A stretch of 64,000 bases of DNA. It comes from a virus. Where the stretch lies: positions 1-64,000 of the IMG/VR virus record IMGVR_UViG_3300034022_000629; one strand, 5' to 3'. Below, piece by piece: positions 22,678 to 52,065 of the stretch (positions within the stretch are counted from its first letter, which is position 1; each line of letters opens with the position of its first letter). Both the position numbers and the translations under genes were made by a program. The notes beneath the pieces are model-generated. The model was given only the letters and a program-made list of their open reading frames with translations. It did not search any database and was not told the origin of the DNA.

Positions 22678-22678
22678 T

Positions 22679-22718: not shown

Positions 22719-22750
22719 ACCTTATCTGTATATAAAATTTTATATATTAT

Positions 22751-22948: not shown

Positions 22949-22952
22949 ATTA

Positions 22953-26018: not shown

Positions 26019-26019
26019 T

Positions 26020-28598: not shown

Positions 28599-29349
28599 AA
28601 AGAAATGTGCGGTTTTTACTATTGTAAAAAATGAAAATTACTTCTTACCAATATGGTTAAAACATTATAAGAGGTACTTTGATAATTCAGACATTTATAT
28701 CTTAGACCATCAATCGAATGATGGGTCAACTGAAGGATTAGATGTTAATGTTGACTTAGTTATTAACGAAATGGCATTTGATCATCAATGGTTAGTTAAT
28801 ACCGTAGAAAACTTCCAAGTTAAATTACTTGAGAACTATGAATCGGTTTTATTTGTGGAAATAGATGAGATAATATATACTCTTGACAAACCATTAAATG
28901 AAGTTATAATTGATTTTATTAACGATGATAATTTACTTGTTCAATCTTGTACTAGTAGAGATTTATTACAAATTTTAGAAACAGAAAAGTCTTTAGAAGA
29001 GGGTGATTTAATTATTGAAAATAGAAACTATTGGTTCGAGGATGCAATTTACCATAAAACATTATTATCTAAAGTACCTTTAAAATGGGTGGTTGGATTT
29101 CATTACATAACTAACCATACCACAAACCACACACTTAACCTTAGAATGTGTCACTTACATCGTTTTGATTTTGAATTAATGTGTGAAAGAAATATTCATC
29201 GTATAAATAATACCCAAATTGAGGGTGGTGCAAATGGTTTTCAAAATAAAACAACAGATAAAAATAAATTAATGGATTTCTTTATTATGGAACATAATAA
29301 AAAGGAACTCATTCCTGAAGAACATAAAATAGCTCTAAAACATATATGA
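28585..29349 (+). CDS. putative nucleotide-sugar-dependent transferase (GT-A-like)
   Basis: The N-terminal AVFTIVKNENYFLPIW resembles GT-A-fold DUF-type transferases. Confidence 0.35.
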   Translation: MSTTKKKCAVFTIVKNENYFLPIWLKHYKRYFDNSDIYILDHQSNDGSTEGLDVNVDLVINEMAFDHQWLVNTVENFQVKLLENYESVLFVEIDEIIYTLDKPLNEVIIDFINDDNLLVQSCTSRDLLQILETEKSLEEGDLIIENRNYWFEDAIYHKTLLSKVPLKWVVGFHYITNHTTNHTLNLRMCHLHRFDFELMCERNIHRINNTQIEGGANGFQNKTTDKNKLMDFFIMEHNKKELIPEEHKIALKHI

Positions 29350-29972
29350 ATTTAATTGATAAAAATATCTACAATGAATTTACTTTATTGCCCGAAGATA
29401 CATCTGGTTGGAATGGGAATAGTGAAGTTTTTGTTAAATTAATTACAGAAATTAAACCTAAAACAATTATTGAAGTTGGTTCTTGGAAAGGACAGTCAGC
29501 AATTAATATGGGTAAAACAACTAAGGAATTGGGATTAGGTACCACAATACATTGTGTGGACACTTGGTTAGGTGCAATTGAATTTTGGTCAAGTTTAAAG
29601 GAAACAGAAGAACGTAATTTATTATTACGTCACGGATACCCTCAGATTTATTATCAATTTTTAAGTAATGTAATTCACAATGGTTTACAAGATACTATTT
29701 TACCATTTCCAAATACATCGGAAAATGGATTTAGATATTTTAGAGATATAAAACTGACCGCGGATTTAATTTACATCGACGCCTCTCACGAGGAGGAAGA
29801 TGTTTATAAAGATGTAAATAATTATTTTACCTTATTAAACGCGGGAGGTATAATATTTGGGGATGATTATGTTAGTTGGATTGATGTAAAGAAATCAATT
29901 GACAGATTCGTTAAAGAACAAAATTTAACTTTAGAAGTATTGGAAAATAATTTTTGGGTTATAAAAAAATAA
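29346..29972 (+). CDS. class I SAM-dependent methyltransferase (Methyltransf_24-like)
   Basis: IIEVGSWKGQSAINMG is a GxG SAM-binding motif; YIDASHEEEDV is typical of the family. Confidence 0.5.
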   Translation: MNLIDKNIYNEFTLLPEDTSGWNGNSEVFVKLITEIKPKTIIEVGSWKGQSAINMGKTTKELGLGTTIHCVDTWLGAIEFWSSLKETEERNLLLRHGYPQIYYQFLSNVIHNGLQDTILPFPNTSENGFRYFRDIKLTADLIYIDASHEEEDVYKDVNNYFTLLNAGGIIFGDDYVSWIDVKKSIDRFVKEQNLTLEVLENNFWVIKK

Positions 29973-29976
29973 GATT

Positions 29977-31071
29977 ATGGTATATGATTACTTAATAGTG
30001 GGTTCTGGATTCTTCGGTAGTATCTGTGCACACGAACTTAACAAAACAGGTAAGAAGGTTTTAGTGATTGATTCAAGAAATCATATAGGTGGTAACTGTC
30101 ACACAGAAAATAAAGATGGTATCAATGTTCACACATATGGTCCTCACGTATTTCACACATCAAATGAAGAAGTTTGGAAATGGATTAATCAATTTGTTGA
30201 ATTCAATAACTTCAGACTGAATCCTGTTGCCAATTACAAAGATGAATTGTATTCGTTACCTTTTAATATGTGGACATTTAATAAGTTATGGAATGTTACC
30301 ACACCTGAACAAGCTAAACTTGTTATTGAGAATCAATCTAAAGAGATTGGTGAACCAACTAACTTAGAGGAACAAGCAATTAAATTGGTTGGTAAGGATG
30401 TGTATGAGAAATTGATTAAAGGATATACCACCAAACAATGGAAGAAAGACCCTAAAGAATTACCTAAAGAGATTATAACTAGATTACCTGTTAGATTTAC
30501 ATTTGATGGTAACTACTTCAATGACAAGTATCAAGGTATTCCAATTGGTGGTTACACACAGATATTTGAAAAGTTATTAGATGGTATTGAAGTTAGGTTG
30601 GGTGTTGATTATTTCAAAGATGAATTACCCGAACATACTAAAGTAATATACACTGGTCCTATTGATAGGTTCTTTGATTACAAGTATGGTGAATTAGAAT
30701 ATAAAACAACAAGGTTCGAACATAAACACTTTGACACACCAAACTATCAAGGTACAGCAGTAATGAACTACACTGAAGAAGAGATAGTACATACTAGAAC
30801 TATTGAACATAAACATTTTGAAAGTTCAGACACACCAACAACTTGGGTTTCGTGGGAATATCCTCACACATATAAGGCAGGTGAGACCGAACCATATTAT
30901 CCTGTGAATGATAAATCAAATACTGAGATATATTCAAAGTATAAAGAAGAGGCAAATAAATTAAGTGATAGTGTTTTATTTGGTGGTAGGTTAGCCGAGT
31001 ACAAATATTATGATATGCATCAAGTAATTGCGTCAGCGTTAGATTTTATAAATAAAGAAATTAATAAATGA
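29977..31071 (+). CDS. glf: UDP-galactopyranose mutase
   Basis: N-terminal FAD-binding DYLIVGSGFFGS, followed by NCHT and GPHVFHT; 364 aa, typical of Glf. Confidence 0.8.
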   Translation: MVYDYLIVGSGFFGSICAHELNKTGKKVLVIDSRNHIGGNCHTENKDGINVHTYGPHVFHTSNEEVWKWINQFVEFNNFRLNPVANYKDELYSLPFNMWTFNKLWNVTTPEQAKLVIENQSKEIGEPTNLEEQAIKLVGKDVYEKLIKGYTTKQWKKDPKELPKEIITRLPVRFTFDGNYFNDKYQGIPIGGYTQIFEKLLDGIEVRLGVDYFKDELPEHTKVIYTGPIDRFFDYKYGELEYKTTRFEHKHFDTPNYQGTAVMNYTEEEIVHTRTIEHKHFESSDTPTTWVSWEYPHTYKAGETEPYYPVNDKSNTEIYSKYKEEANKLSDSVLFGGRLAEYKYYDMHQVIASALDFINKEINK

Positions 31072-32177
31072 ATATAACATTTGTATTGGCGGTATTAAAT
31101 AAATTAGATTTAACCAAGGATTGTTATAATCATTTACGTAAGTTATATCCAGAGGTACCGTTAGTTATTAGTAGTGGCGGATCTTTAGATGGTACAAAGG
31201 AATGGTTAGAATCTTTAGATGATGAGTATATGTCATATTTTCACGACGATGAAAGATTGACATTTTCCGATACCTACAATGCTGGAATTAAATTAGTTGA
31301 TACTGAGAAATTAGTGTTGATACATAACGATATGGTTATTGGTGAACAGTTCTTAGAGAACTTAGATAGATTATTAGATGAGAATCCAAATACTTTATTA
31401 TCGTACACCACAATTGAACCTCCAATCTTTAAGGGACACAAAAGACCTGGTAAAGTATTAATGGATATGGGGTCATCGTTTCATAATTTTGACCATACTT
31501 TATTTGAACGATACGTTCAAGACAATAAAGATAAATGTAATATCTACGATGGTGCGGTTTTCTTTATGAGTGGGACCAAGAAAATGTTTGATGATATTGG
31601 CGGGTTTGATGGTTTTAGTTTTGTCCCTTGTTTCTGTGAGGATGATGATTTCTTAATTCGTGCGAAACTAAAAGGCTACGAACTTAAAACTACGGACTGT
31701 GCAATCACCTATCATTTTGTTTCGCAGACATCTAGATTTAGTGACGAGATGAAGACCGATAGGTTTAAAATTGAAGTTTCGTCAAATAGAAACTTTATTA
31801 GGAAGTGGGGTATTCCAATATCATCGTTTAATGAATTAAGATATTGGGAAGATAAGATTTTCAAATATAATACCTTTTCAATTGGTTTGACAACTAGAGA
31901 TAAATCGAAATTAGTACAATTAGAACCTTACTTTGATAAAATCGATTTAGGGGTGATTCCTGAAGATTATATAGAGAATGAACAAAAGAATACACGCTAC
32001 GATTTAAGGTCGAAATTTACCCTTACTGACACCGTTGACGTGATGGTTTATGAAACTGCACCATTCACAGATGAAGACATTTATACTTTGAATAGATTAA
32101 GGTTGTCATTACCTCATTATGAACCTGGACAATACAATATAGGTAATATGTTAATAGAAATAAAAAAGGGACTATAA
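31068..32177 (+). CDS. GT2-family glycosyltransferase
   Basis: The N-terminal FVLAVLNKLDL and the FCEDDDF (DxD-like) motif fit GT2 architecture. Confidence 0.5.
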   Translation: MNITFVLAVLNKLDLTKDCYNHLRKLYPEVPLVISSGGSLDGTKEWLESLDDEYMSYFHDDERLTFSDTYNAGIKLVDTEKLVLIHNDMVIGEQFLENLDRLLDENPNTLLSYTTIEPPIFKGHKRPGKVLMDMGSSFHNFDHTLFERYVQDNKDKCNIYDGAVFFMSGTKKMFDDIGGFDGFSFVPCFCEDDDFLIRAKLKGYELKTTDCAITYHFVSQTSRFSDEMKTDRFKIEVSSNRNFIRKWGIPISSFNELRYWEDKIFKYNTFSIGLTTRDKSKLVQLEPYFDKIDLGVIPEDYIENEQKNTRYDLRSKFTLTDTVDVMVYETAPFTDEDIYTLNRLRLSLPHYEPGQYNIGNMLIEIKKGL

Positions 32178-32184
32178 GTCCCTT
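32166..32184. terminator. bidirectional intrinsic terminator between convergent genes (aagggact-ata-agtccctt with A/T tracts on both sides)
   Basis: Perfect 8-bp stem. It sits exactly between the plus-strand gene ending at 32177 and the minus-strand gene ending at 32190. Confidence 0.55.
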
Positions 32185-32189
32185 TTTTA

Positions 32190-32645
32190 TTATTTCTTAA
32201 TCAACTTAAATAGTACTTGATATTTGTCTTTTGTTTTTCCCGCTTCCTTTAGATCTTCTTTGGTAATTTCAGGATATTCAATTTCAATTTCTTGATTTAA
32301 AAGTACACCATATTCATTATCAAATTCGATGTACTGAGGGTTAACAACTTTACCAGTTACGGTACCTTCATCGTCCTTAACTTCGTTGTACATTTTTACT
32401 AAGACGCCACCATTACCATCTTCTTCTCCATACTTTTTGATTAATTCATCTCTTAATGCTTCAACCTTAGTTCTCTCGCCTTTAAGTTCTGTTGAGAAGT
32501 CACTCAATTCGTATTTCAAAATGATTGAAAGGTTTTGTTTACTGAATCCCTCAAACACCTGTTCTCCAGTTTGTGGTTCGATATACCCGTTAATTTCGCT
32601 TTCTAATTGTAGAACGTCCCCTAATTTTAATGTGATTTTTTCCAT
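32190..32645 (-). CDS. hypothetical acidic protein
   Basis: 151-aa ORF. Confidence 0.4.
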   Translation of the reverse strand: MEKITLKLGDVLQLESEINGYIEPQTGEQVFEGFSKQNLSIILKYELSDFSTELKGERTKVEALRDELIKKYGEEDGNGGVLVKMYNEVKDDEGTVTGKVVNPQYIEFDNEYGVLLNQEIEIEYPEITKEDLKEAGKTKDKYQVLFKLIKK

Positions 32646-32696: not shown

Positions 32697-33305
32697 TTAT
32701 TTCCACCACCATCCTTTACCGTCAAAAACGGCATAGTCCATTATTAAATTAATTCTATCTGATTGACTTTGGTTTCTAACCTCGTGTTCAACCATATCAT
32801 TCAATTCCCAAACCTCTCCAACCTTAAAGAACTTATCTTCATCCCTAACATTGTAGATAATCTTATCTTCCTCGGAAATCAATGCAACGTGAACTCTATG
32901 ACTAAGGGTGTAAGAACCACCAACGTCTATATGTCTATTAACATTCTTACCTGCAAATAGTTTAACGAACACAGCCCTAGCAAGATAACCTGGACCGTAT
33001 TCTTTTTCCAAGACCTTCATAACAGGTTCCAATAATTCTTCCATATTAAGAAGATCCCAATACTTGTGTTTAGTTCCGTTAAAGTGTCTAAAGTCTTTAT
33101 CATATATTAATTGAATGGCTTGGGTTGCGGAATGGAATCTACTATATGCTTCTTGTCTAAAAGTATCAGCACCCCAATCCTCATCTTCAATTTTACTTAA
33201 GGAATCAATTAATGGTTGTGGGTTAATTGTACCCAAAAATTTAAAATTTTCTCCTATGTTCATAGAATAGTGATTAATGCGTATGTTATCATAAGTGATA
33301 TCCAA
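32697..33305 (-). CDS. cupin-type aspartyl/asparaginyl beta-hydroxylase-like 2OG oxygenase
   Basis: NRHIDVGGS...HRVHVAL...MVEHEV gives an H-x-D...H pattern and the right size for this family. Confidence 0.45.
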   Translation of the reverse strand: MDITYDNIRINHYSMNIGENFKFLGTINPQPLIDSLSKIEDEDWGADTFRQEAYSRFHSATQAIQLIYDKDFRHFNGTKHKYWDLLNMEELLEPVMKVLEKEYGPGYLARAVFVKLFAGKNVNRHIDVGGSYTLSHRVHVALISEEDKIIYNVRDEDKFFKVGEVWELNDMVEHEVRNQSQSDRINLIMDYAVFDGKGWWWK

Positions 33306-34264
33306 ATTATTAATGCTTTAAGATATGTCATAAATCCTGTGTGAAAATACTTTTGACCTATCGGTAAACATTTATGTGAAGGCGATATCAAATACGCGGA
33401 ATATTCCAAAGTGAAAAACAATACAAAATAATGCATACCAAATACACTTGTTAATAAACTAACAATACTTGCATATTTTGCTGAAGACCCTAATAAAAAT
33501 GAAGATAAGAAAGATATCATCGACACTATTAAAATGTATTCTGGTTTGTTATATTGTTTTATATAACCTTCCATAACGCCATAATAAGAACCAACTACGT
33601 TACCTAATATAATCACTAACGCAACAATCCATATTAGTTCCCAATTAATATAATTTATTAACTTAGTCCAACTGTTAGAATAATAGACTAGATAGAGTGT
33701 AAATATTGTAAACGCTCCAAAATAATAATCGGTGAAGCAACTAATAATAATTGTACCTAAGAATGGTAAAACAACATTAGTAATATTCTTCCAATTAATT
33801 GGGTCGTCACTTACTTCGATATCTATTTCATCGTCATCCATAGATAGGATATAATAACTAATATATAATCCTGAAATCAATAACAATGGCCAGATATATG
33901 ACATAAACTGCATATAGGTTAACCCTAACACCGCCATAGGAATAATAACTGTTTTCTCTAATGGTGACCATAGATAGTAATGATGAGTTGCAAGGTAATC
34001 GATGATACCAAACTTCTTACGTTTCTTATTATCAATCGGAGCAATACTATTCAACATAGATGCCGATAGTGCAACACGACCTGGTATGGGTAGAATACCA
34101 CCAAATAGTGATACTAAGAATACTACCATCTTTTTAGATTTAACTTTTTGTTCTAGTAATCTAAAGATATCCATAAGGTATCCTCTTTCTTTGAGGATAC
34201 CTGTTACGAACATTATGAATATTAAGTAGACAAGGAACTCTTGTCCTTTGATTAAAATCTCCAT
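33260..34264 (-). CDS. polytopic membrane protein (about 10 TM)
   Basis: Very hydrophobic throughout. Confidence 0.45.
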   Translation of the reverse strand: MEILIKGQEFLVYLIFIMFVTGILKERGYLMDIFRLLEQKVKSKKMVVFLVSLFGGILPIPGRVALSASMLNSIAPIDNKKRKKFGIIDYLATHHYYLWSPLEKTVIIPMAVLGLTYMQFMSYIWPLLLISGLYISYYILSMDDDEIDIEVSDDPINWKNITNVVLPFLGTIIISCFTDYYFGAFTIFTLYLVYYSNSWTKLINYINWELIWIVALVIILGNVVGSYYGVMEGYIKQYNKPEYILIVSMISFLSSFLLGSSAKYASIVSLLTSVFGMHYFVLFFTLEYSAYLISPSHKCLPIGQKYFHTGFMTYLKALIIWISLMITYALITIL

Positions 34265-35136
34265 CCAAATATAATTGTGGTTCTTGATAATTTTGCGTCT
34301 TGGTTAAGTCCTGGCATATGCTCAATGTTTAAATATGCTTTGTTGTTGAAACGATATTGTACAAGTGGTCCAATATACCATTCTTGAAAACCTCCCTTAT
34401 AATCGTTATATCTAAACATATGTGACACACCTAACGTTAAATCATTGTTGATAATATTACCATATGAAGCGGTGTATGCGTATTCTCTTTCTTGTTCTTC
34501 TTTGGTTCCAGCTAAGTTACCCTCGTAAATTGCATTAAATCCCCAAATACCACTCTTACCAATTCTATCACCTAATAATAATTTTGGTTCGATACCCCAA
34601 CGACCATCTAACATTTTGGTTTCGAAGTATAATGTTGGGTTACCCCACACTTTACCCCAATCGGCAAGAGCGTAACGGAACTCCCAAGAGAATCCTCTCC
34701 ATTTAAATTCCTTGTCACCATTTTCACCATCATAAACTGTGTGAGAATAAAAGTCTAATTGAAGTCTCTTACCTAAACCGAATGTGAATTCATCTCTCAT
34801 TCTAATTTGTGCTGGTCCGTTTCTTCTTTGTCTAATGTCAAACCACTTCTCGTACATTGCGGTACCTGGTGGATTCATTACATAAACTCTAGTGGATGCA
34901 AACATTCTCATTGTCGTCCAAAGTGGTTGACCATAAGGACCTACCTTGGTCATTAAAGGTACCTTCTTTGCTGTAACAACAATTTCTTGTAATTGATTAG
35001 GGACTGTGTCCGTTTGAACTTTTAAGGATTGTTCTGAACCTTTCTGAATTGCACTACTACTGTATTGTCCAAATGACATAGTGGTAGTAAACAATAGTGC
35101 TAACATTAGCGATAGCATTGTGATTGTTTTTCTCAT
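34252..35136 (-). CDS. secreted beta-barrel outer-membrane-protein-like protein
   Basis: Signal peptide ending ...SFGQ. Alternating amphipathic segments and a C-terminal ...FGWRF with an aromatic terminal residue. Confidence 0.4.
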   Translation of the reverse strand: MRKTITMLSLMLALLFTTTMSFGQYSSSAIQKGSEQSLKVQTDTVPNQLQEIVVTAKKVPLMTKVGPYGQPLWTTMRMFASTRVYVMNPPGTAMYEKWFDIRQRRNGPAQIRMRDEFTFGLGKRLQLDFYSHTVYDGENGDKEFKWRGFSWEFRYALADWGKVWGNPTLYFETKMLDGRWGIEPKLLLGDRIGKSGIWGFNAIYEGNLAGTKEEQEREYAYTASYGNIINNDLTLGVSHMFRYNDYKGGFQEWYIGPLVQYRFNNKAYLNIEHMPGLNQDAKLSRTTIIFGWRF

Positions 35137-35200
35137 TTTGTTTTTGTTTAAGAAAAGTTTATTATTGATGTAATATAACTAAAAAAGATGAAAATAAAAA

Positions 35201-35220
35201 GGGGTTTATCTCTAAACCCC
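35201..35220 (-). terminator. intrinsic terminator (ggggttta / taaacccc) followed by a T-run on the minus strand
   Basis: Perfect 8-bp stem with a 4-nt loop. Confidence 0.45.
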
Positions 35221-35226
35221 CTATTT

Positions 35227-35478
35227 TTACTTCTTAAATCCTAATTTTTCCCAAATTATTTTAAATGGACAAACACCTGTTAGTGCGGCCAAAGGTAATA
35301 ATACAGGCGGTAACCAATGTACCCAACTAATGTTATCAAATCCCGCCAAACAATTGGCAATAAATACAACGACTCCTATTGATAGGAACGTCATTCTTGC
35401 TGACGGTGAGGCGTCACCTAACTTAAATAAACTCATACTATATGTTTTAAAATTATTGTTAATGAAATTATTATCCAT
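35227..35478 (-). CDS. DUF2892 (YgaP-like) small membrane protein
   Basis: Two TM helices plus a GVCPF motif. Confidence 0.45.
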   Translation of the reverse strand: MDNNFINNNFKTYSMSLFKLGDASPSARMTFLSIGVVVFIANCLAGFDNISWVHWLPPVLLPLAALTGVCPFKIIWEKLGFKK

Positions 35479-35765
35479 ATTGTGTTAAAAACAATAAGGG
35501 TTGGGAGTGATTTCCTCATACTAGCCCAAATTAAAAGAGATGATGTTAAAAGAGTTAAAAAATGTAACCACCAAATTTCTTTACCAAACACCAAACCTGG
35601 TACAATGATTGCAGCTTTAGCCATCCAAGCCGAACATTCAATTGTGTTGTAGTTTGTCCAATATTCTTTATCGGTGTACATTAAAATTTTATTCCAAATC
35701 TTTTTGTATCCAATTAGTCCAAACAATAGACTAATAAATGTGAAATATGTTAAGATGTATATCAT
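35433..35765 (-). CDS. membrane protein (3-4 TM)
   Basis: Hydrophobic 110-aa ORF. Confidence 0.35.
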   Translation of the reverse strand: MIYILTYFTFISLLFGLIGYKKIWNKILMYTDKEYWTNYNTIECSAWMAKAAIIVPGLVFGKEIWWLHFLTLLTSSLLIWASMRKSLPTLIVFNTIWIIISLTIILKHIV

Positions 35766-35974
35766 TTTATTTTATTTAAAAGTTCTTCTTTAAATTCTTT
35801 CTCAGGTTTTTGAAAGTGCATCCACATTGGTTTTTTACATTGGCAAGTGGATTCAGTTATTCTATTAACCAAATCATTATATTTCTCTTCTAAAAATTGA
35901 ATACGTTCTTTTAATTCTTTAATCTCGTCCATAGAATTTTTTAAGGTATTCATAGTGGTTAGGTAATTGGTCAA
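35762..35974 (-). CDS. small hypothetical protein; the track start overlaps the halogenase 3' end, so the real start is probably an internal ATG
   Basis: 70 aa, coiled-coil-like, with a CQCKKP motif. Confidence 0.3.
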   Translation of the reverse strand: MTNYLTTMNTLKNSMDEIKELKERIQFLEEKYNDLVNRITESTCQCKKPMWMHFQKPEKEFKEELLNKIK

Positions 35975-37436
35975 CTAACAGTTCTGCTTCCTTGCGGATA
36001 ATCTCCATTTTCATATCACAAAACTTATCGTATTTTGGATTTAATTTAAATCTACTATTTTTATAGAACCCCATAGCCCATAACCATTGGAACCAATTAA
36101 CTCCACCAAATATACGACCTCTAAACAATTGTTCAGGTGGTTGTATTGACATAATATGTAACTTTTGTTTTAATGTGTCAGGTACAAATGATTTCTCTTT
36201 TACGTCTTTCCAAAATTGAGTATCGTTCCTATTACATAATAAATAATGTGCCTGAATGAAATCTCTAATATCAATCATCATATCGATGTTATCTTTATTG
36301 ATTGCATCAATTGTTGATGATGTGTAGTTAAGATTATTTTTTTCTAATTCCGTTGCTAATGTTGCCATTATACCTTGAAACGTTGAAATACCTGTCGACT
36401 CCATTGGTTCCGCAAAACCACCAGCTAATCCACAAGCAACTACATTTTTAACTGCTACTTTTTCACGAGTACCAATTCTCATATTAATTTTTATAACCTT
36501 ACCATCGTATCCTCCGTGAAATTCTCTATATTCTTTTTCCGCATCCTCATCACTAATATGTTTTGATGAGTACACATACCCAGAACCTATTCTATCGAAG
36601 ATGGGTGTTTTCCATAACCAACCACTATTCATTGTGTAAAGTCTCGAATATGGTTCCATTTCTGATTTCTTATCTTTATATGGGATTGGTGCCGCAATGG
36701 CTTTATCACAAAATAATGAATCACTAAATGAAATGAATGGTTCATTCATAACTGATTCAATTAATACACCTTTGAACCCAGAACAATCAATAAACAAATC
36801 AGCCGCAAATTTTTGTTGATCCCATAATTTAATGTCTTGAATATAACCAAAGTCATTTAGTTTAACTTGTTTTAATTGACCCTCAACAAATTTAACACCA
36901 TTAGGTATACATACTTTATTTTTAATAACTTCAGCAAATTTAATTGCGTCGAAATTATAACTGTAAACACTCTCAATATCTTCGTAAGTTGGTAGATAAG
37001 TTAAATCATCATCAATTTTTGGACAAAGATTATTATCACATAATTTAGAAGATATAAATAACTCATCTAATTTTTTTGAGTCGTCTTTATATTTCGATAC
37101 AAGGTGTTGTAGTAAGTTTGTGTTTTTATTAACAAATAATTTAGATTCATTCTCAACACGAACCATATGTTCACCAGTACTAGACCAATTCATAAACTTA
37201 CCTCCGTACTTATATGTTGCAGACGATTCATTCATCCAATCTTCTTCTTTAAGTCCTATAAATTTCATATAAGAATGAAGACTAGCCGTTGAACTTTCAC
37301 CAACACCAATTGCACCAATTTTATTTGAGTGAATTACTGTGATGTCTAATTTTTCTTTAAATACTTTAGACAATAATGCTGCTGTCATTATGCCAGCTGT
37401 ACCGCCACCAACGATTACAATTTTTTTAATTTCCAT
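35919..37436 (-). CDS. flavin-dependent (tryptophan-type) halogenase
   Basis: - N-terminal FAD motif IVIVGGGTAGIMTA.
- GWLWKTPIFDRIGSGYVY matches the GWxWxIP halogenase signature.
- AGGFAEPMESTGI matches the F-x-x-P-x-S-x-G motif.
- Length 505 aa. Confidence 0.7.
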   Translation of the reverse strand: MEIKKIVIVGGGTAGIMTAALLSKVFKEKLDITVIHSNKIGAIGVGESSTASLHSYMKFIGLKEEDWMNESSATYKYGGKFMNWSSTGEHMVRVENESKLFVNKNTNLLQHLVSKYKDDSKKLDELFISSKLCDNNLCPKIDDDLTYLPTYEDIESVYSYNFDAIKFAEVIKNKVCIPNGVKFVEGQLKQVKLNDFGYIQDIKLWDQQKFAADLFIDCSGFKGVLIESVMNEPFISFSDSLFCDKAIAAPIPYKDKKSEMEPYSRLYTMNSGWLWKTPIFDRIGSGYVYSSKHISDEDAEKEYREFHGGYDGKVIKINMRIGTREKVAVKNVVACGLAGGFAEPMESTGISTFQGIMATLATELEKNNLNYTSSTIDAINKDNIDMMIDIRDFIQAHYLLCNRNDTQFWKDVKEKSFVPDTLKQKLHIMSIQPPEQLFRGRIFGGVNWFQWLWAMGFYKNSRFKLNPKYDKFCDMKMEIIRKEAELLVDQLPNHYEYLKKFYGRD

Positions 37437-37448: not shown

Positions 37449-38180
37449 TTAAGCTTCAGGTGCAGGTACTGCGTCGAATCTTGAGTCTCCAGGTATAATT
37501 GTTCTTTCCACAGGTAAAACGACATTTAAAATATCATCACCTTCCGTATTTTTTAATTGGGTAACATATGATTCCTCTTCAGAAAACATTTGAGCAATTT
37601 GTAATTTATAATTCTCATAAGCCACCAATACTGACGGAACTAATTCCGAAACCGAAACACCTCTTGCATCCGCAATTAAACTTAATGTTGGTGTTGGTGA
37701 TGTTGGGTCTTCGGTATAATCTTTAGCTTCACTAACTTGTGAATCCCAAGTTGCTCTTTCTTGTGGGGTCTTATTGATTGATAAAGTTTCAAACTTTTGT
37801 TTGTAGTAATCTTTAACCATTCTTATTCTAACCCAACGAATTGCTTCATATCTATCAGTAACTTCACTATCGACCATTGGTCTCTTGATACGAATACCTT
37901 TGTTTGCATCAAAATCTTCATCGAAGAATTCAGCAGATTGACCTCCTGAATAATTCTTATAAAGTTTGGCACTTTCTTTAGTTGCAATAAAATAAAGAAG
38001 TCCATTTATTACTTGTTCATTACATAAAACGATACCATATTTTTGAATTAGTCCAGTTGATACTTTTGCTATATCAGGTACTGTGCAGAAATAATAGTTC
38101 TCTGCGTATCTTAATTGTTCCAACCCACTTATCATTGGATGACCTTCACCCTGTGGTATTCTGTATGCTATGTAGTCCAT
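37449..38180 (-). CDS. hypothetical protein
   Basis: 243 aa; lies upstream of the tail-fibre genes. Confidence 0.4.
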   Translation of the reverse strand: MDYIAYRIPQGEGHPMISGLEQLRYAENYYFCTVPDIAKVSTGLIQKYGIVLCNEQVINGLLYFIATKESAKLYKNYSGGQSAEFFDEDFDANKGIRIKRPMVDSEVTDRYEAIRWVRIRMVKDYYKQKFETLSINKTPQERATWDSQVSEAKDYTEDPTSPTPTLSLIADARGVSVSELVPSVLVAYENYKLQIAQMFSEEESYVTQLKNTEGDDILNVVLPVERTIIPGDSRFDAVPAPEA

Positions 38181-38181
38181 T

Positions 38182-38835
38182 TTACTCTTGTTTAAAATCT
38201 ATTTCTTTTCTTTGGTTATTTTCTAGGAGTTCTTGATCCCCTATCATATCTAAATATTTTACTTGTCCTTTTACTTCGTTTGTAATTTTAGTTGCCTCAA
38301 CTAACGCTTTCCTAAAATTGGTATCACCCATTTGCATTAACGCCTCTAAATTACCAACACCAATACGACCAACTGTTAGTAATTCTAACGCCGCTTGGTT
38401 TGCCAACCTTTTAATCCAATAATCAGTTTCATATACTTCTTGATTTTCCATCAACTCCTTTACATCAATTTTAGATCTAAACTCTTCTAAAATTTGTTCA
38501 AGATACGAAAGTTCCCCTTTGGTTCTTTCCATACTTCTGTTTCCATTTTCATATCCGATATCTAATTTCTTAATTTCGTGTTGATACAACGCCTTTTGAG
38601 CCTCTGAAGTTTCTGATAAAAATTTTTCCATCACTAAATTCCTTTCTAAACGATTTTTCTCCATATCCAAACCAATTTGCTCAAGGTTAGTAATTCTAAC
38701 CTCCATTTCTAATAAAATCTGTTTGAATTGTCTAAAATTATTGTGTTGAGACCCAACAACGAAATGTTTAATTTGGAATTGACTCATTGAAAAGTTTAAG
38801 TCTTTATATTCCAACGGTAATTTATCTTCTGTCAT
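38182..38835 (-). CDS. coiled-coil hypothetical protein
   Basis: 217 aa with heptad-like Leu/Glu/Lys content. Confidence 0.4.
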   Translation of the reverse strand: MTEDKLPLEYKDLNFSMSQFQIKHFVVGSQHNNFRQFKQILLEMEVRITNLEQIGLDMEKNRLERNLVMEKFLSETSEAQKALYQHEIKKLDIGYENGNRSMERTKGELSYLEQILEEFRSKIDVKELMENQEVYETDYWIKRLANQAALELLTVGRIGVGNLEALMQMGDTNFRKALVEATKITNEVKGQVKYLDMIGDQELLENNQRKEIDFKQE

Positions 38836-38888: not shown

Positions 38889-40475
38889 TTAAAATGATGC
38901 CCACATTCCTGAACCAGATGATGCTGAGCGAGGTGCATCGGTAATTTGAACTATAGTGTCAATATTATAGTTAATTTTATCTGAGTGTGCGTTTTGACCA
39001 TCGGTACAACTGTAACCACCCGCAAAATAACCCCAGTTCATTCCCATAAGTCCCGCGTGTTCGTTATTCCATCTTGTTTGTGAACCACTATTGATAGTCC
39101 AAGTTGATGTAGTGTTTACGAATTTAAATATTCTATTTCCATCAGAAGTGGTACAATAAGTACCACCCCAATTACCCGCTAAATAAAATTTATCTTGTTT
39201 TGAATTAACACCCTTTTCCGCTCCGCTTCCTGGCATACCTAACGCTCCTGGATTACTATTTGTTGATACAGTTGTCCAAACTTCAGTTGAGTGTGGCATT
39301 TTATTGGTTACGGTTGTTGAACCTCCATACGCTGAAGCAAATTGAAAACTATAGTCTTTATCAAACCAGCCAACAGCGTATTGTCCAACAGGTGCACCTG
39401 TTGTAGATGTCCAAGTTTCAGATGCAAACAATAATATGTCCATATAAGTGGTACCCTTACCAACTTCAAATCCTTTAGTTCCATAAGATGCTAAAGTATT
39501 ATATGTTCCACCTTGAGCTGAAGGTAATGCGGATGGTAAGTAACCAATACCGTGTTGACAAGATGATGGAGAACCTCCAGCACCGTTGGGTCTAGCGGCA
39601 ATTGCTTGTACTGTATCGGTAGCAAAGTTTACTCTATCATTTGTTGTGTCACCATTTTGTACATTATGGTAAGTGTATCCATTTGACATTGCACTTGCCC
39701 ATCCAGCATATTTAATTGCTTTGTTTAATGAAGATGCCATATATGACCAACTATCTGTTGCATATAATAATCTAAGAATGTTACTATATAAAGTACTGCC
39801 AATATAACCACCCCCAACGTATCCCCTTACTAAATTTAAATCAAATCTGTATGTGTTTGTTAGAAAGGCAAAAACTGGTCTATCGTTATGTTTAAGAGTT
39901 GCTGCCTGTGATTCAATTCTAAGTGGTTGAACTTCGGTATCTCCAGCCTCACCCACAACAATACAAACAGCATCTGTTGATGCGATTGTTGTTGAAGATG
40001 AATTAGTGAAATTTGTCCAAGGTCCACCAGGTCCATCTGTAGCATACTGTAATGTTAAAGTGTTTCCACTTCTTTGCCATTTAAACCAATAACCTGTTGT
40101 AGCAGCACCACCACTACCGATAGGTGCGTGATATTGTCCAAAGAACGTTGCACTATATCCATTCGGAAATCCAGATGTGTTTAACGCTCCCGCGTAAGGT
40201 CCATTACCATCAGCTGAATATCCATTAAAATCTGTATGATTAACGGTTGGTCCATAAACAAATCCAGTACCTCTATAGTTGTGAGCCCAATATGCAATAA
40301 TAATAAAATCTTCACCAGCTGCAAAGGTATAATCATATACAACTGTTGTATATCCACTACCAGAACTAAAAATTGTACTATTAGTGCCTGACAACGTTCC
40401 ACGTATGTGATAAGTTGATGGTTGTCTCCAACCTCGTCCTTTGTCAAATAATTCTATATTACCTGTTACTTGCAT
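38889..40475 (-). CDS. tail fibre / receptor-binding-like protein, paralogue 3 (Kelch-like repeats)
   Basis: Shares GY(V/I)GGGYIGS blades and the C-terminal ...QITDAPRSASSGSGMWASF with its two neighbours. Confidence 0.5.
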   Translation of the reverse strand: MQVTGNIELFDKGRGWRQPSTYHIRGTLSGTNSTIFSSGSGYTTVVYDYTFAAGEDFIIIAYWAHNYRGTGFVYGPTVNHTDFNGYSADGNGPYAGALNTSGFPNGYSATFFGQYHAPIGSGGAATTGYWFKWQRSGNTLTLQYATDGPGGPWTNFTNSSSTTIASTDAVCIVVGEAGDTEVQPLRIESQAATLKHNDRPVFAFLTNTYRFDLNLVRGYVGGGYIGSTLYSNILRLLYATDSWSYMASSLNKAIKYAGWASAMSNGYTYHNVQNGDTTNDRVNFATDTVQAIAARPNGAGGSPSSCQHGIGYLPSALPSAQGGTYNTLASYGTKGFEVGKGTTYMDILLFASETWTSTTGAPVGQYAVGWFDKDYSFQFASAYGGSTTVTNKMPHSTEVWTTVSTNSNPGALGMPGSGAEKGVNSKQDKFYLAGNWGGTYCTTSDGNRIFKFVNTTSTWTINSGSQTRWNNEHAGLMGMNWGYFAGGYSCTDGQNAHSDKINYNIDTIVQITDAPRSASSGSGMWASF

Positions 40476-40484
40476 ATTCTATAA

Positions 40485-41450
40485 TTAATAACCACTCCAC
40501 ATTGGTGATCCTGAACTTAATGACCTTGGTGCGTCTGGTATTTGTATAACCGTATCTGTTGGGTATTCCACCCTATCTGTGTGTGCATTTTGTGCTCCAT
40601 TATATCCTCCCGCCCAATATCCGTGATTCTGACCCATAACTGGTGATTGTTCACCATTAGCTAAAGTTTGGTTATATGGATTTGTTTGATATGAATATGT
40701 TATGTGCATAAATTTCATAAATGGATAGGTTACATTATCCCCAATAACATATGATTTAGCATCTTTTGTTGGTAGTCCTTTACCCCAAGCACCTAAAGAT
40801 GTTGTATAGTTAGGTGAACAAGATATAGATCCCCAAGTTTCAGTTGCGTATGGATATCTTCTAGTCACACCATCATTACCCAAACTAAATCCCGCTAATT
40901 TATCAAACCAAGCTTGTGTATATGCGGTTCCAGTTGCAATACTACCATCACTAGCTGCCACCCAAGTATCTGCCGCGAAGTTTAATTTATCGTAGTTAGT
41001 ACTATTTGCGTTTGCTAAGGTATATGCTCTAGTCCCAAAAAAAGAACCGTCGGTGTTGTAACCAATACCGTGTTGTATTTGTGATGAACTATTAGCACTT
41101 GCGTAGTTTCTATTATTGATGTTAGTACATACTTCAGTACTAAATGCCATTTTTTGATTTATTACATCTCCACCGCACCAAAACATATATCCGTTTGTGT
41201 GTGAACTTGCCCAACCTCCATAATATAAACTTGATCGTAACGATGCGTTTGCAGATGTTCCCCAAGCATCTGTTGCATTTTGTATTGTTGTTACAACTGA
41301 CCAAACTGAAGAACCAATATAACCACCACCGATATATCCTTTAGTTAAGGATAAACCATTCTTATAATCATCGGCAATGTATTCAAGGTTCAAAGCTGAA
41401 CCATTGTATTTCATTGTTCCCGTATAATTTATTTGTCCGTATACTTTCAT
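40485..41450 (-). CDS. tail fibre / receptor-binding-like protein, paralogue 2
   Basis: Repeated GGxY...TD(A/T)W units and a C-terminal QIPDAPRSLSSGSPMWSGY. Confidence 0.5.
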   Translation of the reverse strand: MKVYGQINYTGTMKYNGSALNLEYIADDYKNGLSLTKGYIGGGYIGSSVWSVVTTIQNATDAWGTSANASLRSSLYYGGWASSHTNGYMFWCGGDVINQKMAFSTEVCTNINNRNYASANSSSQIQHGIGYNTDGSFFGTRAYTLANANSTNYDKLNFAADTWVAASDGSIATGTAYTQAWFDKLAGFSLGNDGVTRRYPYATETWGSISCSPNYTTSLGAWGKGLPTKDAKSYVIGDNVTYPFMKFMHITYSYQTNPYNQTLANGEQSPVMGQNHGYWAGGYNGAQNAHTDRVEYPTDTVIQIPDAPRSLSSGSPMWSGY

Positions 41451-41454
41451 ATTA

Positions 41455-42426
41455 TTAAATTGGACTCCACATTGGAGATGCTGAACTTAATGATCTTGGC
41501 GCGTCCGCAATTTGAACGACCGTATCTGTATTGTGAAACACTTTGTCACTATGCGCATTTTGACTATAGGTACCTTGATATCCACCAGCTAAATAACCGT
41601 GATTCTGTCCCATAGTTCCTGCGTGTTCACAGTTGGGTTGTGTTTGACTTCCAAAATTTACAGTCCACGTTGATATACTATTTCTAAATTGGAATATTGT
41701 ATTATTATACCAACCACTATTACCCGCAACATACGCCTTACCTTTTTTAGTATTAAGACCTTTCTCTAATTGTCCTTGTGGCATACCCATAGTAATTGGT
41801 CCACTAACTGTTGAAAGTGTTGACCAAGTTTCGGATGCAAATGGAAATATTTTAGTGTAATTATTTAACGATGCAAAGTTCCAACCATACTCTTTATCAA
41901 ACCAACCGTAAGCGTGAGATGCTTGACCTATGTTACCATCCGACCTTGCGGTCATTGAATCTGTTGTAAAATCTAATTTATCATAACTAGTTGATGAGTT
42001 TCCACAAGTGTATGCATATCTTCCATATGGTACTCCCGTTGTTTCAAATCCAACACCTTGTTGAATCAATGATGGTGAATAACTACCATTTGTTCTTGCT
42101 GCGGTTGTTGTAACTGTCTCATTGGCAAACATTACTTTATTAACTGTGGATGCATTTCCTTGAAAAACATAACCGAATGTATGTGCTGAAGCCCATCCTC
42201 CGTAATTGGTTGTGAATGTTAATATATTAGATGAAGTTGCCCAAGCATCTGTCGCATAACTTAATAATGTTATGGTATTCCATACTGAAGCACCAACATA
42301 ACCACCACCAATCAAACCACGAATAAGAACTAATCCTAATTCGTAGTGACTATCTAAAACACTTTTAATATCTCTACCTTGTACTGTTAGATTTCCCGTA
42401 AAATTTACATCTCCGTTTACTTTCAT
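41455..42426 (-). CDS. tail fibre / receptor-binding-like protein, paralogue 1
   Basis: Same architecture as its two neighbours, with a C-terminal QIADAPRSLSSASPMWSPI. Confidence 0.5.
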   Translation of the reverse strand: MKVNGDVNFTGNLTVQGRDIKSVLDSHYELGLVLIRGLIGGGYVGASVWNTITLLSYATDAWATSSNILTFTTNYGGWASAHTFGYVFQGNASTVNKVMFANETVTTTAARTNGSYSPSLIQQGVGFETTGVPYGRYAYTCGNSSTSYDKLDFTTDSMTARSDGNIGQASHAYGWFDKEYGWNFASLNNYTKIFPFASETWSTLSTVSGPITMGMPQGQLEKGLNTKKGKAYVAGNSGWYNNTIFQFRNSISTWTVNFGSQTQPNCEHAGTMGQNHGYLAGGYQGTYSQNAHSDKVFHNTDTVVQIADAPRSLSSASPMWSPI

Positions 42427-42427
42427 A

Positions 42428-45400
42428 TTACAGTCCTAATTTACCTTTTAATTCTGTTATAATCAAGTTCTGTTCGTTTATTTCTTGCTTTAATTCTTTA
42501 ACTGCCTCAATAAGATATGCATTTATTCTACCGTAAGAAACTGAATCAACTTCACCATCTTTATTTTTAAGAACAACTAATGGTGTTACATCATACATTT
42601 CTTCCGCAATCACACCCGCCTCAATATTACCACTATCTTTTCTTGTGTATGTTACACCTCTCATTTGAAGTATCTTATCTAAACCGTATTTAATTGTTTC
42701 AATATTTGTTTTATATCGAATGGATGAATTTTCAGTAAAAATACCACCAACCGTTATACTACCTTTGGTATAGAAGTTACCAGTTGCTGAACTCATTTCA
42801 GCAACAATGGATGGTTGACCTGTTGATGTTCCCGCTTCCCAAGTCCAACCATAACCGCTAGAGTTTTCAATGAAACTACGAAGTGCCCACGATGTTACAA
42901 AATTACCAGCTGCAGGTGAGGTAATATTACCCGTTGGTCCAGTACTGGCAACGTTTACTGCTGCCATATATTGACACCACGCCGTATAACCACTTGAATA
43001 CCAATTAATACCGTGAGTTGTATTGGCACTTCTTTGTATAAAATGACTTCTAGCATATAAATCAACAAATGTTGGTGAGTTACCCGTACCAACACTTTGG
43101 TTAATCGTATATGCTGTTATGTTACCTGCAGTACCTGCAGTTGAAGCATATGACACAGATTGTGAACCAATGTTACCCGTGGTAATTGCATCTGTTATTC
43201 CATAACCACTTATTGTTGTTGGTTTTGATGAAACGTTTGCGAAAGATATACCTGTGATGTATCCGTTTGGATTCGTTGCGTTATATGGTGTATAACCTAA
43301 CGCTGTTGTAACGTTACCACTGGTTATACTCGAAATATATCCCGATGGGTTAGTTGCATTGTATGGGGTAAATCCAAGTGCCGTTGTTACATTACCACTC
43401 GTTATACTTGAAATGTAACCAGATGGGTTCGTTGCGTTGTATGGAGTGTAACCTAATGCGGTTGTAACGTTGCCGCTAGTTATACCTGTTAAATAAGCAC
43501 TATTATTTGTGAACTGTGAAATGTTCATTGAACTTAATGCTCCCGCTGTCGCTACCGTTTGTGAACCAATATTACCACTATGTATAAACTCTCTCCAAGT
43601 TTGCCATCCACTATCATTTCTTCTTCTAAAATACGCAACGTCCGAAGCGTAATCAAACGCTAATTGTGTTCTTCTATCAAAGTTATTACCAATATTAACA
43701 GTTCTTATATTTGGTGATGATAACGGTGGTGTACCTGAAGGTACTGGGTCAAATGTTGTAAAACTTTCTCCCCAATCAGAATCTATATTACCAGTTATTG
43801 TACCATTAGATTTTACAGAATCAGTAATTCCATATCCACTAAGTGTTGTTGGTTTTGATGAAACGTTAGCAAATGATATACCTGTAATATAACCCGATGG
43901 GTTAGTTGCATTATACGGAGTAAATCCTAAAGCTGTTGTTACATTACCACTGGTTATACTTGAGATATACCCTGATGGATTGGTTGCGTTGTATGGAGTG
44001 TAACCTAATGCGGTTGTAACGTTACCACTAGTTATACTTGAAATGTAACCAGATGGGTTAGTTGCGTTGTATGGTGTAAATCCTAAAGCCGTTGTTACGT
44101 TACCGCTCGTTATACCTGTTAAATAAGCACTGTTATTTGTGAACTGTGAAATGTTCATTGATGTCAACGCGCCCGCCGTAGTTGCTGTTGTTGCATTACC
44201 ACTTAATGCGCCTGTGAACGTTGTTGCACTTACTGTTGAGAATGTTGGTGTACTAGTTGTTAATACTGCTTGGTTTATAACTGAACCATATCCTATTGTT
44301 GAACTTAAGGTAATTTGTGCACTACCCGATACCAAACCAGACGGTATACTACCAATTGATCCGAATGTTATTTGAGACGAGCCCGACACTATACCAGATG
44401 GAATACTCGATAAACTACCATATGTAATTTGACTAGATCCAGATACAACACCATCCGCATTCATTTTACTTTTTACACCACTTGTAAATGTTGCTGATGT
44501 TGTGTCAAGACTAACTGTTCTTGTTGCGGATATGTCACCGCCACCACTTAAACCATTACCTGCAGTAATTGATACCGCTGTGTGATCGATATGTCTATTT
44601 GTATCATACCCTGTTGTTGAGTTATGTGCTATTTGTGATGAACCAGAAACTATTGTTGTTCCTGTTGAAACAATTGTACCATTAATAACGGTGTTAGATA
44701 AAACAGTAACGGTTGTACCGTCATCTGTTATGTTTGAATCATTTAAGTGATCTCCTCCGGCAGATTTTGCAATTCTACCACTTGTTAATGTTAATTCACT
44801 TCCTAATGAACCAGAGCTACGAGGTCCAGATAATATAACACCACCACCATACGAAGCCTCACTTGAGTTTTGATAAACCCACCTATTATTAACTGAGTCC
44901 CATAATAAAGATCCTGTCGCGATTCCAACCGAACCCGAATCGTGAACTTCTAATCCACCAAATCTAGAACCTGGACTCGCTGTGTTTACTGTAATAATAT
45001 TATCCTCAACTCTTAATTGAGATGATGTCACATATGTTATAGATGAGGAACCAAAAACTGTTAAGTTTTCAGTAATTATTACCGAACCACTAATTGTTTG
45101 TAAGCCTTTGAATGTGTTAGAACCGGTGGTTGCGTAACTACCACTTTTACCTTCAATCGAATCTAACCTATTGCTTTGATTTAATGTTGTGGTAGCAATT
45201 GAAGAACTTAATGATCCAATACTAGAACTTAATCCGCTTGTTGTTGTTGCAACTGATGATGATAAACTCCCAATACTAGAACTTAATCCACTTGTTGTTG
45301 TTGCAACACTTGAAGATAAACTTCCAATACTACTTGTTAAAGAAGAACTTAATCCTAATGTTGTAGTTGCAACTGAAGAAGATAAACTTCCAATTGAACT

Positions 45401-49456: not shown

Positions 49457-49459
49457 TGT

Positions 49460-50185: not shown

Positions 50186-50191
50186 AATAAA

Positions 50192-52038: not shown

Positions 52039-52065
52039 ATTATTTTCTTATTTCTATATAAATAT

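Follow-up and report, generated by a model that had tools for sequence, protein, structure and literature searches.

The 64,000-nucleotide stretch of viral DNA analysed here (positions 1 to 64,000 of IMG/VR record IMGVR_UViG_3300034022_000629, referred to as the window) encodes on its minus strand a flavin-dependent halogenase which appears catalytically intact, belongs to a divergent clade of phage proteins and has all four motifs by which characterized relatives bind tryptophan replaced. The halogenase is co-inherited with a predicted 2-oxoglutarate (2OG)/Fe(II)-dependent cupin hydroxylase, and the two genes bracket a pair encoding a predicted outer-membrane channel and a DUF401-family inner-membrane transporter, an arrangement that we tentatively read as an auxiliary module for secondary metabolism and transport. 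Virus-encoded halogenases are known, none of them with a known natural substrate or a known role in infection.

Identity and catalytic residues of the halogenase

The halogenase gene (35919-37436, minus strand) is an uninterrupted open reading frame (ORF) of 505 codons for amino acids with an ATG start. Its product matches the Pfam family PF04820 (Trp_halogenase) with an E value of 3.8e-105 (352.8 bits against a cut-off of 21), residues 5-458 aligning with profile positions 1-445 of 458, and PHROG 2928 ('tryptophan halogenase') with an E value of 1.6e-105. Among solved structures it matches thirty distinct halogenases, PrnA, RebH, PyrH and Thal among them, with E values from 6e-81 to 1e-38; the top match is Th-Hal (5lv9, 5.8e-81), followed among the further top ones by SttH (5hy5), Tar14 (6nsd) and the Trp 5-halogenase 8fov, with Th-Hal, SttH, Thal, PyrH, PrnA and RebH spanning 1e-81 to 1e-70, while VirX1 (6qgm) and BrvH (6frl) are found with 2e-69 and 7.5e-59 respectively. 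The strength of these sequence matches is far beyond chance.

The motifs expected of the family are in place, one of them as a variant. The GxGxxG motif reads GGGTAG (residues 10-15) and is conserved in an alignment (A3) that sets the window halogenase beside fifteen clade members and six homologues from bacteria; the block ATYK with the catalytic lysine occupies residues 73-76, GWLWKTP residues 272-278 and FAEPMESTG residues 341-349. K76 and E346, the equivalents of K79 and E346 of PrnA, are invariant in the phage clade and in cyanophage and bacterial homologues, and K76, E343, E346, T348, G349, W273, W275 and P278 are invariant throughout A3, T348 and G349 corresponding to the backbone positions at which halide binds in RebH and BrvH (PMC5945002). 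The WxWxIP motif reads W273-L-W275-K-T-P278, with both tryptophans and the proline invariant and the isoleucine replaced by threonine across the whole phage clade. A signal peptide is absent, and the enzyme is therefore assigned to the cytoplasm.

Judged by these residues, the 505-residue protein is a two-component flavin-dependent halogenase of PF04820 whose catalytic site is intact. A first-pass annotation, made from the letters of the window, had arrived at the same call; the PF04820 match and the motifs it quoted, found where it had placed them, bear it out, the catalytic lysine and glutamate are present and invariant on alignment, and the best family profile is that of the halogenases and not of a non-halogenating flavin adenine dinucleotide (FAD) monooxygenase. 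Its wording 'Trp-type' is apt as the name of the family and probably misleading as a statement about the substrate, as all four tryptophan-binding motifs are replaced.

Replacement of the tryptophan-binding motifs

In characterized tryptophan halogenases four tryptophan-binding motifs, Trp1 to Trp4, have been defined (Jeon et al., PMC8269204), which in the group of PyrH, SttH and Th-Hal read ATFS, HPF, QxxQ or QxxxQ, and (Y/H)YHG(L/F)(P/E)PYS, and which, over group A (PrnA and RebH) and group B together, also take the forms ATIP or ATVP, HLF and YYx13G(N/S)YY. These motifs have been shown by experiment to govern substrate binding and regioselectivity, and enzymes without Trp4 form a group with different substrates (PMC8269204). 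Pairwise alignments to Th-Hal and SttH together with alignment A3 place other residues at every one of these sites in the phage enzyme: at Trp1 SSTASL stands where others have ATFSDI (clade consensus ESSTASL), at Trp2 (R/L)VE replaces HPF (clade V(L/R)VE), at Trp3 DIESV replaces QGKTQ (clade IESVYSYNFD) and at Trp4 RGRIFGGVNWF replaces YYHGLPPYS (clade RGRIFGxVNWFQWLW). Inside the phage clade the substitute residues are almost invariant at all four sites. Bacterial homologues of about 35% identity (P0058 from Nostoc and P0097) retain ATFS, HPF and YHGFE, and a homologue from Mastigocladus (P0074) retains the three with single substitutions.

Absence of such motifs has precedents. BrvH has neither the Trp4 loop nor the residues that would anchor tryptophan by its amino and carboxylate groups, and it does not take tryptophan as a substrate (PMC5945002). 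VirX1 and the homologue from phage S-RIM44 are also without the Trp motifs, but have other residues at these sites (alignment A5). Since all four motifs are replaced, the substrate of the phage enzyme is probably not free L-tryptophan; the target would probably be a different indole or phenol-type compound, or else a substrate that is larger or tethered.

A distinct clade in large phages

In a search of 5.8 billion proteins, 41 protein clusters share 58-100% identity with the window halogenase, after which identity drops to 36-37%. Members are 505-511 residues long in all clusters but one (P0041, 488 residues, with a later start call). A DNA search of the region gave no match among 50,697 deposited phage records, and the deposited phage records that encode halogenase homologues (64, at 27-37% identity) belong mostly to T4-like cyanophages and in a few cases to Pelagibacter and Campylobacter phages. 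At the sequence level the clade is distinct, being at most 37% identical to anything outside it, the cyanophage enzymes included.

The window itself is phage DNA, as it encodes a tail fibre of 1365 residues with a C-terminal Peptidase_S74 domain (42428-46525), many of its proteins match PHROGs and it runs collinear with viral contigs of IMG/VR, in agreement with the earlier statement that the halogenase is carried by a virus. Likewise, all clade contigs whose context was read carry phage hallmark genes. Their sizes reach 351 kb, 263 kb and 113 kb and their gene order is the same as in the window, which places the window in a large ('jumbo'-range) phage lineage. To judge by their scaffold names, some of these contigs come from lake metagenomes, and the lineage is probably a freshwater one.

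The neighbourhoods of the nearest halogenases outside the clade were read and are unrelated to the window cluster. At one of them, a soil metagenome locus (L170, 7591-11119), a homologue of 37% identity is followed by a membrane protein of the Na+/H+ exchanger family, a flavin reductase and a methyltransferase, again a halogenase adjoining a membrane transporter.

The partner hydroxylase and its co-inheritance

The cupin gene (32697-33305, minus strand) encodes 202 residues, overlaps the DUF401 gene and may be shorter than called, several homologues starting at the equivalent of Met15. The protein matches PF05118 (Asp_Arg_Hydrox) with an E value of 3e-12 (47.1 bits against a threshold of 22.6), and in alignment A4 the residues H125-x-D127, H174 and R184, which make up an HxD...H...R site, are invariant. 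An AlphaFold2 model with a predicted local distance difference test score (pLDDT) of 82.5 has a double-stranded beta-helix fold, for which Foldseek finds proline cis-4-hydroxylase (4p7w, 6e-10), proline 3-hydroxylase, a nucleoside-antibiotic hydroxylase and AspH, so that the fold is nearest to hydroxylases of free amino acids. By active-site residues and modelled fold the protein is an intact 2OG/Fe(II) hydroxylase, and the first-pass description of a cupin hydroxylase stands on the family match, the intact iron/2OG site and the hydroxylase-like fold. Its C-terminus carries, in all 13 aligned homologues, an invariant GKGWW followed by W or Y (and then by K or R in longer forms), an unusual aromatic tail for a 2OG oxygenase. 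The set of 5.8 billion proteins holds only 28 homologues, 27 of which carry PF05118 and are 49-100% identical to the window cupin.

The distribution of the two enzymes was surveyed in 63 IMG/VR loci with a DUF401 homologue of 75-98% identity together with loci from the halogenase, channel and cupin searches (about 80 in total), genes being scored by tblastn and the DUF401 tree being built by neighbour-joining. Essentially all surveyed loci encode the channel-DUF401 pair, in most of them followed by p151, an acidic protein of 151 residues, and a minority encode the halogenase. Every halogenase locus also encodes the cupin (9 distinct loci by identical DUF401 sequence, about 11 by other genes: L004/L154, window/L005, L007/L008, L009, L010/L163/L164, L011, L012, L013, L137/L156 and L165), every cupin locus whose context was read (about 11 distinct ones) encodes the halogenase, and none of about 40 distinct halogenase-free loci encodes the cupin. 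In the DUF401 tree the halogenase-positive loci stand at about six separate positions, and the channel, DUF401 and p151 proteins of the window are 91-99% identical to those of halogenase-free phages as against 42-87% to those of other halogenase-bearing phages. This joint presence and absence shows that halogenase and cupin are strictly co-inherited and patchy in this phage group, although they are not adjacent and bracket the channel-DUF401 pair.

In halogenase-free phages, a radical S-adenosylmethionine (radical-SAM) enzyme, a protein of 346 residues (p346) and a methyltransferase, sometimes with a 2OG oxygenase, are encoded between the channel and genes like p217 and p243, the two genes which in the window precede the halogenase. 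No protein of this cassette has a homologue in the window, and the halogenase/cupin pair looks like taking the place of the cassette in the halogenase-bearing clade.

The protein p346 (L106, 5270-6310; L001, 3802-4839; L003, 4965-5996) belongs to no Pfam family and is encoded directly upstream of DUF401 in the freshwater phages. It is 43-45% identical to the product of the gene directly upstream of DUF401 in cyanophage S-H25, where it is fused to a methyltransferase-like part, and in the Ralstonia jumbo phage RP12; as the same pairing occurs in both, the adjacency of p346 and DUF401 is old and widespread. A gene for 527 residues upstream of the S-H25 DUF401 gene was examined as a candidate halogenase and is not one. 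The whole cluster is absent from the isolated phages S-H25, S-CAM4, ACG-2014j, metaG-MbCM1 and Ralstonia RP12/RP31, which have DUF401 without halogenase, cupin or channel. As to a bacterial origin, channel homologues on chromosomes of Planctomycetota and Verrucomicrobiota (30-41% identity) have no DUF401, halogenase or cupin neighbours; the only genes that recur beside them, in a subset of loci, encode a sensor kinase or a further copy of the channel.

The gene run around the halogenase

All genes of the run 32697-37436 lie on the minus strand in the same direction as the halogenase and 3' of it. In the order of transcription, and with the genes flanking the run, the features besides the halogenase and the cupin are:

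37449-38835, minus strand: p243 (243 residues, PHROG 1604) and p217 (217 residues, PHROG 1409), which precede the halogenase in every locus
35762-35932, minus strand: small ORF of 56 residues as called in an identical contig, or 70 from an upstream TTG; no membrane segment, poorly conserved
35433-35765, minus strand: hydrophobic membrane protein of 110 residues, encoded at most loci with the halogenase and at three without it
35227-35478, minus strand: protein of 83 residues with two hydrophobic segments and the C-terminus TGVCPF, present in 5 of 9 distinct halogenase loci and in no halogenase-free ones
35199-35222, minus strand: GC-rich hairpin with a T-run, from a consensus scan only, in the 90-nt gap between the 83-residue and channel genes
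34252-35136, minus strand: predicted outer-membrane 12-strand beta-barrel channel of 294 residues with a signal peptide (AlphaFold2 and Foldseek)
33260-34264, minus strand: DUF401-family polytopic inner-membrane transporter of 334 residues, its start overlapping the end of the channel gene by 13 nt
32190-32645, minus strand: p151, acidic and soluble (PHROG 1401), after DUF401 or cupin in most related phages, with or without halogenase

The AlphaFold2 model of the 294-residue protein (pLDDT 82) has 12 strands and a disordered linker before the barrel, in keeping with the signal-peptide beta-barrel protein of the first-pass annotation, and Foldseek matches it to FapF (4e-10), NanC, the COG4313 channel, PcoB and KdgM. 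Its C-terminus reads ...FGWRF, and it has 844 homologues, none annotated, one of which matches PF13557. In alignment A1 a glutamine directly after the signal-peptide cleavage site is invariant, and residues 47-58, in the predicted disordered linker, hold a conserved TonB-box-like motif L-x-E-[VI]-[IV]-V-T-A-K-K (QEIVVTAKK). A TonB-dependent transporter was considered and rejected, since the model has 12 strands instead of 22 and no plug domain, the TonB-box-like motif being the only such feature.

The DUF401 protein matches PF04165 (E 1e-11, 45.2 bits against a threshold of 24) and PHROG 14035 (E 1.3e-81), and scores against TIGR00529 with an E value of 2.6e-14 and 53 bits, under the equivalog cut-off of 378, which makes it a member of the family and not an equivalog. 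Weak CitMHS matches of its homologues suggest an anion or carboxylate transporter type. Of the ten transmembrane segments assigned to it before, the polytopic nature holds (at least seven strongly hydrophobic segments in a crude hydropathy scan) and the count of ten is plausible only. A literature search on DUF401 returned nothing but prefix look-alikes such as DUF4012 and DUF4015, and cupin, DUF401 and channel have no sequence match among solved structures. Of the small proteins, the additional membrane protein announced for the run is found as the 110-residue hydrophobic protein, while the label DUF2892 for the 83-residue protein is not confirmed, no Pfam family being matched even at E <= 10; what speaks for the label is a resemblance in TGVCPF and the two hydrophobic segments.

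The hairpin at 35199-35222 is a possible terminator or attenuator that would divide the run into two transcription units. Upstream of the p217 gene, a promoter-like site (38881-38853, TTGACA-17-TATATT, near-consensus sigma-70-type, 11 of 12 matches) was found by consensus scan. Together, hairpin and promoter-like site suggest, from consensus scans only, one unit of p217, p243, halogenase and small genes and another of channel, DUF401, cupin and p151. A further hairpin (32159-32191) is common to the 3' ends of the minus-strand run and of a convergent plus-strand glycosyltransferase block.

The view that the run forms one unit, as taken in the first-pass annotation, therefore survives in part: the gene order recurs in every halogenase-bearing relative down to 58% identity, but the channel-DUF401 pair often occurs without halogenase and cupin and a hairpin lies between the two halves.

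Surrounding genes and the host

The run is flanked on both sides by genes for carbohydrate-modifying and tailoring enzymes. Besides at least seven glycosyltransferase-like genes, the plus-strand block 22025-32177 encodes an NAD-dependent epimerase/dehydratase (26020-26865), a methyltransferase (29346-29972) and a UDP-galactopyranose mutase (Glf, 29977-31071), and it looks like an island for synthesis or modification of a surface glycan. On the minus strand, 46580-64000 encodes a 2OG oxygenase (47380-47883), radical-SAM proteins (48416-49456 and 61838-63100), an adenosine 5'-phosphosulfate (APS) kinase (52654-53115), glycosyltransferases of the GT25, GT2 and GT7C types (53466-56035), a NodU/CmcH-type carbamoyltransferase (56158-57837) and a DUF6734 protein (58651-59715). 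The phage APS kinase suggests sulfation chemistry.

After the tail fibre gene, three tandem paralogues of 528, 321 and 323 residues (38889-42426, minus strand) are rich in Gly, Tyr and Ser and share the C-terminus DAPRS.SSGS.MW..(F/Y); the two shorter ones match PHROG 1417 and the 528-residue one matches none, and homologues precede a p217-like gene in cyanophage S-H25. Elsewhere in the window are encoded an S-adenosylmethionine decarboxylase-like protein (9374-9799), a haloacid dehalogenase (HAD) domain of the RNA-repair 'Swiss Army Knife' type (8738-9319), an NlpC/P60 peptidase (19272-19751), the thymidylate synthase ThyX (20172-21320) and DNA methyltransferases; no tRNA genes are present in the window.

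Given the barrel protein, the host should have an outer membrane. An invariant glutamine after the signal peptide is typical of secreted proteins of Bacteroidota. The nearest bacterial channel homologues (55-57% identity) are found in Bacteroidota bins, and there the C-terminus of the adjoining protein resembles, by eye, a type-IX-secretion sorting tail. The glutamine after the cleavage site and these closest homologues hint at a Bacteroidota host. Against this, p217 (with homologues in 123 T4-like cyanophage records), DUF401, the halogenase and the carbamoyltransferase have their isolated-phage relatives mainly in T4-like cyanophages. A marine cyanobacterium is probably not the host.

Proposed function and alternatives

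By the mechanism of its family, the halogenase would be active in the cytoplasm of the host and draw on O2, halide and FADH2, the last presumably from a flavin reductase of the host; hypohalous acid would be formed and directed by Lys76 and Glu346 onto an electron-rich aromatic carbon. Halogenase and hydroxylase could then modify a single small molecule in two steps, probably an aromatic or amino-acid-derived one, and its precursor or the product would cross the host envelope via the channel and DUF401 during infection. Tailoring of a common molecule and its transport, which are drawn from distribution and gene position, are the weakest steps. The product might be a toxin or a signal, or feed the surrounding glycan-decoration machinery as a building block. 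The composite reading as an auxiliary secondary-metabolism and transport module, in which the halogenase/hydroxylase pair goes with the channel/transporter pair, is the one we prefer, held with rather less than even confidence. That the conserved envelope-crossing pair and the exchangeable enzyme slot together form a modular virus-encoded production and transport system, with alternative tailored small molecules or their precursors moved across both host membranes, is a wider proposal that we consider unlikely. If the link to the transporter were true, it would provide the first function for DUF401 and an example of phages re-plumbing the host envelope for a small molecule.

Several observations weigh against the composite reading. 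Among 49 window ORFs scanned with Pfam, a part of all ORFs, no flavin reductase was found. The channel-DUF401 pair occurs in many halogenase-free phages, and DUF401 alone in cyanophages, so that its link to the halogenase may be positional only; in addition, the terminator-like hairpin stands between halogenase and channel. The perfect co-occurrence of halogenase and cupin could partly reflect recombination of a whole block and not selection for a joint function. Phages pack unrelated accessory genes near tail-fibre genes, where the cyanophage halogenases are likewise placed, which makes adjacency weak evidence. Finally, loss of the Trp motifs argues against free tryptophan and says nothing on the actual substrate.

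The main alternative, which we rate somewhat below the composite reading, is that halogenase and cupin serve instead the decoration of glycans or amino-acid-sugars by the phage, the decorated moiety ending up on a surface polysaccharide of the host or on a metabolite derived from sugar, as has been proposed for large cyanophages, and that channel and DUF401 are a separate accessory unit. At least ten glycosyltransferase-like genes, the epimerase, Glf, the carbamoyltransferase, the APS kinase, methyltransferases, 2OG oxygenases and radical-SAM genes flank the cluster on both sides, the channel-DUF401 distribution is independent of the halogenase with a hairpin between the halves, and a cyanophage cluster of carbamoyltransferase, halogenase, 2OG oxygenase and cupin has been read as serving capsule decoration or a secondary metabolite (PMC7824862). 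In the window, however, 19 kb that include tail-fibre genes separate the carbamoyltransferase from the cluster, the cupin gene is part of the channel-DUF401-p151 unit and adjoins neither the halogenase nor sugar genes, and the presence of halogenase and cupin does not follow the glycosyltransferase block, which is found too in the halogenase-free locus L106. To our knowledge, no halogenated bacterial surface glycan has been described, which also counts against such a role. A peptide or protein as target, with the halogenase modifying a Trp or Tyr residue as MibH does on a lanthipeptide, for instance in a tail-fibre-associated protein encoded just upstream, and the cupin hydroxylating the same target, would fit the loss of the residues that anchor free tryptophan at its amino and carboxylate groups, as well as the likeness drawn between the open site of BrvH and the peptide-specific MibH (PMC5945002). 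In the window clade as well as in cyanophages S-RIM44 and Syn10, tail-fibre-like genes and p217/p243 always precede the halogenase, and the cupin is in the aspartyl/asparaginyl beta-hydroxylase family, the founding members of which act on proteins. Yet accessory genes generally gather beside tail-fibre genes in T4-like phages, the cupin comes closest in structure to hydroxylases of free amino acids, neither a precursor peptide nor recognizable machinery for ribosomally synthesized and post-translationally modified peptides was seen, and nothing ties the enzymes to a particular protein, so that this target appears quite unlikely.

The two remaining explanations concern the halogenase itself. 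Its top solved-structure matches are the Trp 6- and 5-halogenases Th-Hal, SttH, Tar14, AbeH, Thal and PyrH, and the helix RDFIxAHYxxCxRxDTxFW is conserved with tryptophan halogenases, as would be expected of an ordinary free L-tryptophan 5- or 6-halogenase producing chloro- or bromo-tryptophan in the infected cell; with all four tryptophan-binding motifs replaced, and an identity of about 35% to Trp halogenases which is no more than that to many uncharacterized homologues, such an activity is distinctly improbable. That the gene is no more than a remnant, or that its product has become a flavin monooxygenase without halogenating activity, could be read from WxWxTP in place of WxWxIP and from the fact that no cognate flavin reductase was found nearby, but is very improbable indeed for a protein of full length, strongly conserved across the full-length clusters of its clade, in which the catalytic and halide-site residues are all invariant.

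Comparison with known systems

Phage halogenases and their pairing with cupin and 2OG hydroxylases are already known. A halogenase in a phage is less of a novelty than the first-pass annotation implied, since both VirX1 and clusters in large cyanophages that combine a halogenase with a 2OG oxygenase and a cupin have been published. New are the divergent clade outside the deposited phage genomes with its predicted conserved non-tryptophan pocket, the strict co-inheritance with one hydroxylase, the placement around a channel/DUF401 pair and the natural alternative cassettes in the same slot.

VirX1 of cyanophage Syn10 (PDB 6QGM), the first characterized viral halogenase, prefers iodide and is a trimer whose active site is open; its natural substrate is not known (PMC8407142). 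Like VirX1 and the enzymes of T4-like cyanophages, the window enzyme is virus-encoded, belongs to PF04820, has the catalytic lysine and glutamate and is without tryptophan-anchoring motifs; in S-RIM44 and Syn10, too, the halogenases follow tail-fibre or fibre-assembly genes and precede 2OG oxygenases. Unlike a close relative, VirX1 is 33-37% identical to the window enzyme, no nearer than bacterial ones, and its E value is weaker than that to Th-Hal. The cyanophage loci have a tandem halogenase pair, where a single copy is found here, and no channel/transporter pair; they are marine, whereas the window clade is separate, with contigs of up to 351 kb and some lake samples.

From large cyanophages such as S-SSM6a, Iyer et al. 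(2021, PMC7824862) described a cluster that joins an amino-acid halogenase with a cupin and a 2OG oxygenase and also encodes carbamoyltransferases, a HemK-like methylase and a HAD phosphatase. The window resembles them in being part of a large phage with an amino-acid-type halogenase, a cupin-fold hydroxylase, more 2OG oxygenases, and a carbamoyltransferase and sugar-modifying enzymes in the region. The cluster is contiguous there, while here the carbamoyltransferase is 19 kb away and halogenase and cupin bracket channel and DUF401; neither a HemK-like methylase nor a HAD phosphatase was identified next to the window halogenase.

With the group B tryptophan halogenases (PyrH, SttH, Th-Hal and KtzR) the phage enzyme shares fold family and catalytic residues, and they are its best full-length solved-structure matches, but Trp1 to Trp4 are replaced and the phage locus has no adjacent flavin reductase or bacterial-type biosynthetic gene cluster. 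BrvH, of 'group C', is likewise a PF04820 member with intact catalytic residues and without tryptophan-anchoring residues, and natural substrates in this group are unknown (PMC5945002); it is a weaker match than Th-Hal and has a shortened loop, whereas the phage clade has a long C-terminal region with a conserved motif of its own. Loci of Xanthomonas and Alteromonas with TonB-receptor, halogenase, SapC and cupin genes, considered as a further parallel, were set aside, as a literature search gave nothing usable and 2pyx and 6y1w, which are of that type, match less well than genuine tryptophan halogenases.

The predicted channel shares with FapF, NanC/KdgM, COG4313/Phenol_MetA_deg and PcoB, which are channels for small solutes or polypeptides, a 12-strand barrel with an N-terminal segment; it differs from them by an identity of about 10-13%, by being phage-encoded and paired with DUF401, and by a TonB-box-like motif not described for them.

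A divergent halogenase with a putative conserved non-tryptophan pocket is of interest for biocatalysis. With an obligate partner hydroxylase, an adjoining channel and transporter and natural 'minus' relatives, the clade offers a cleaner handle than the cyanophage enzymes, and the phages with and without the halogenase cassette permit a comparison that could show what phage halogenases are for.

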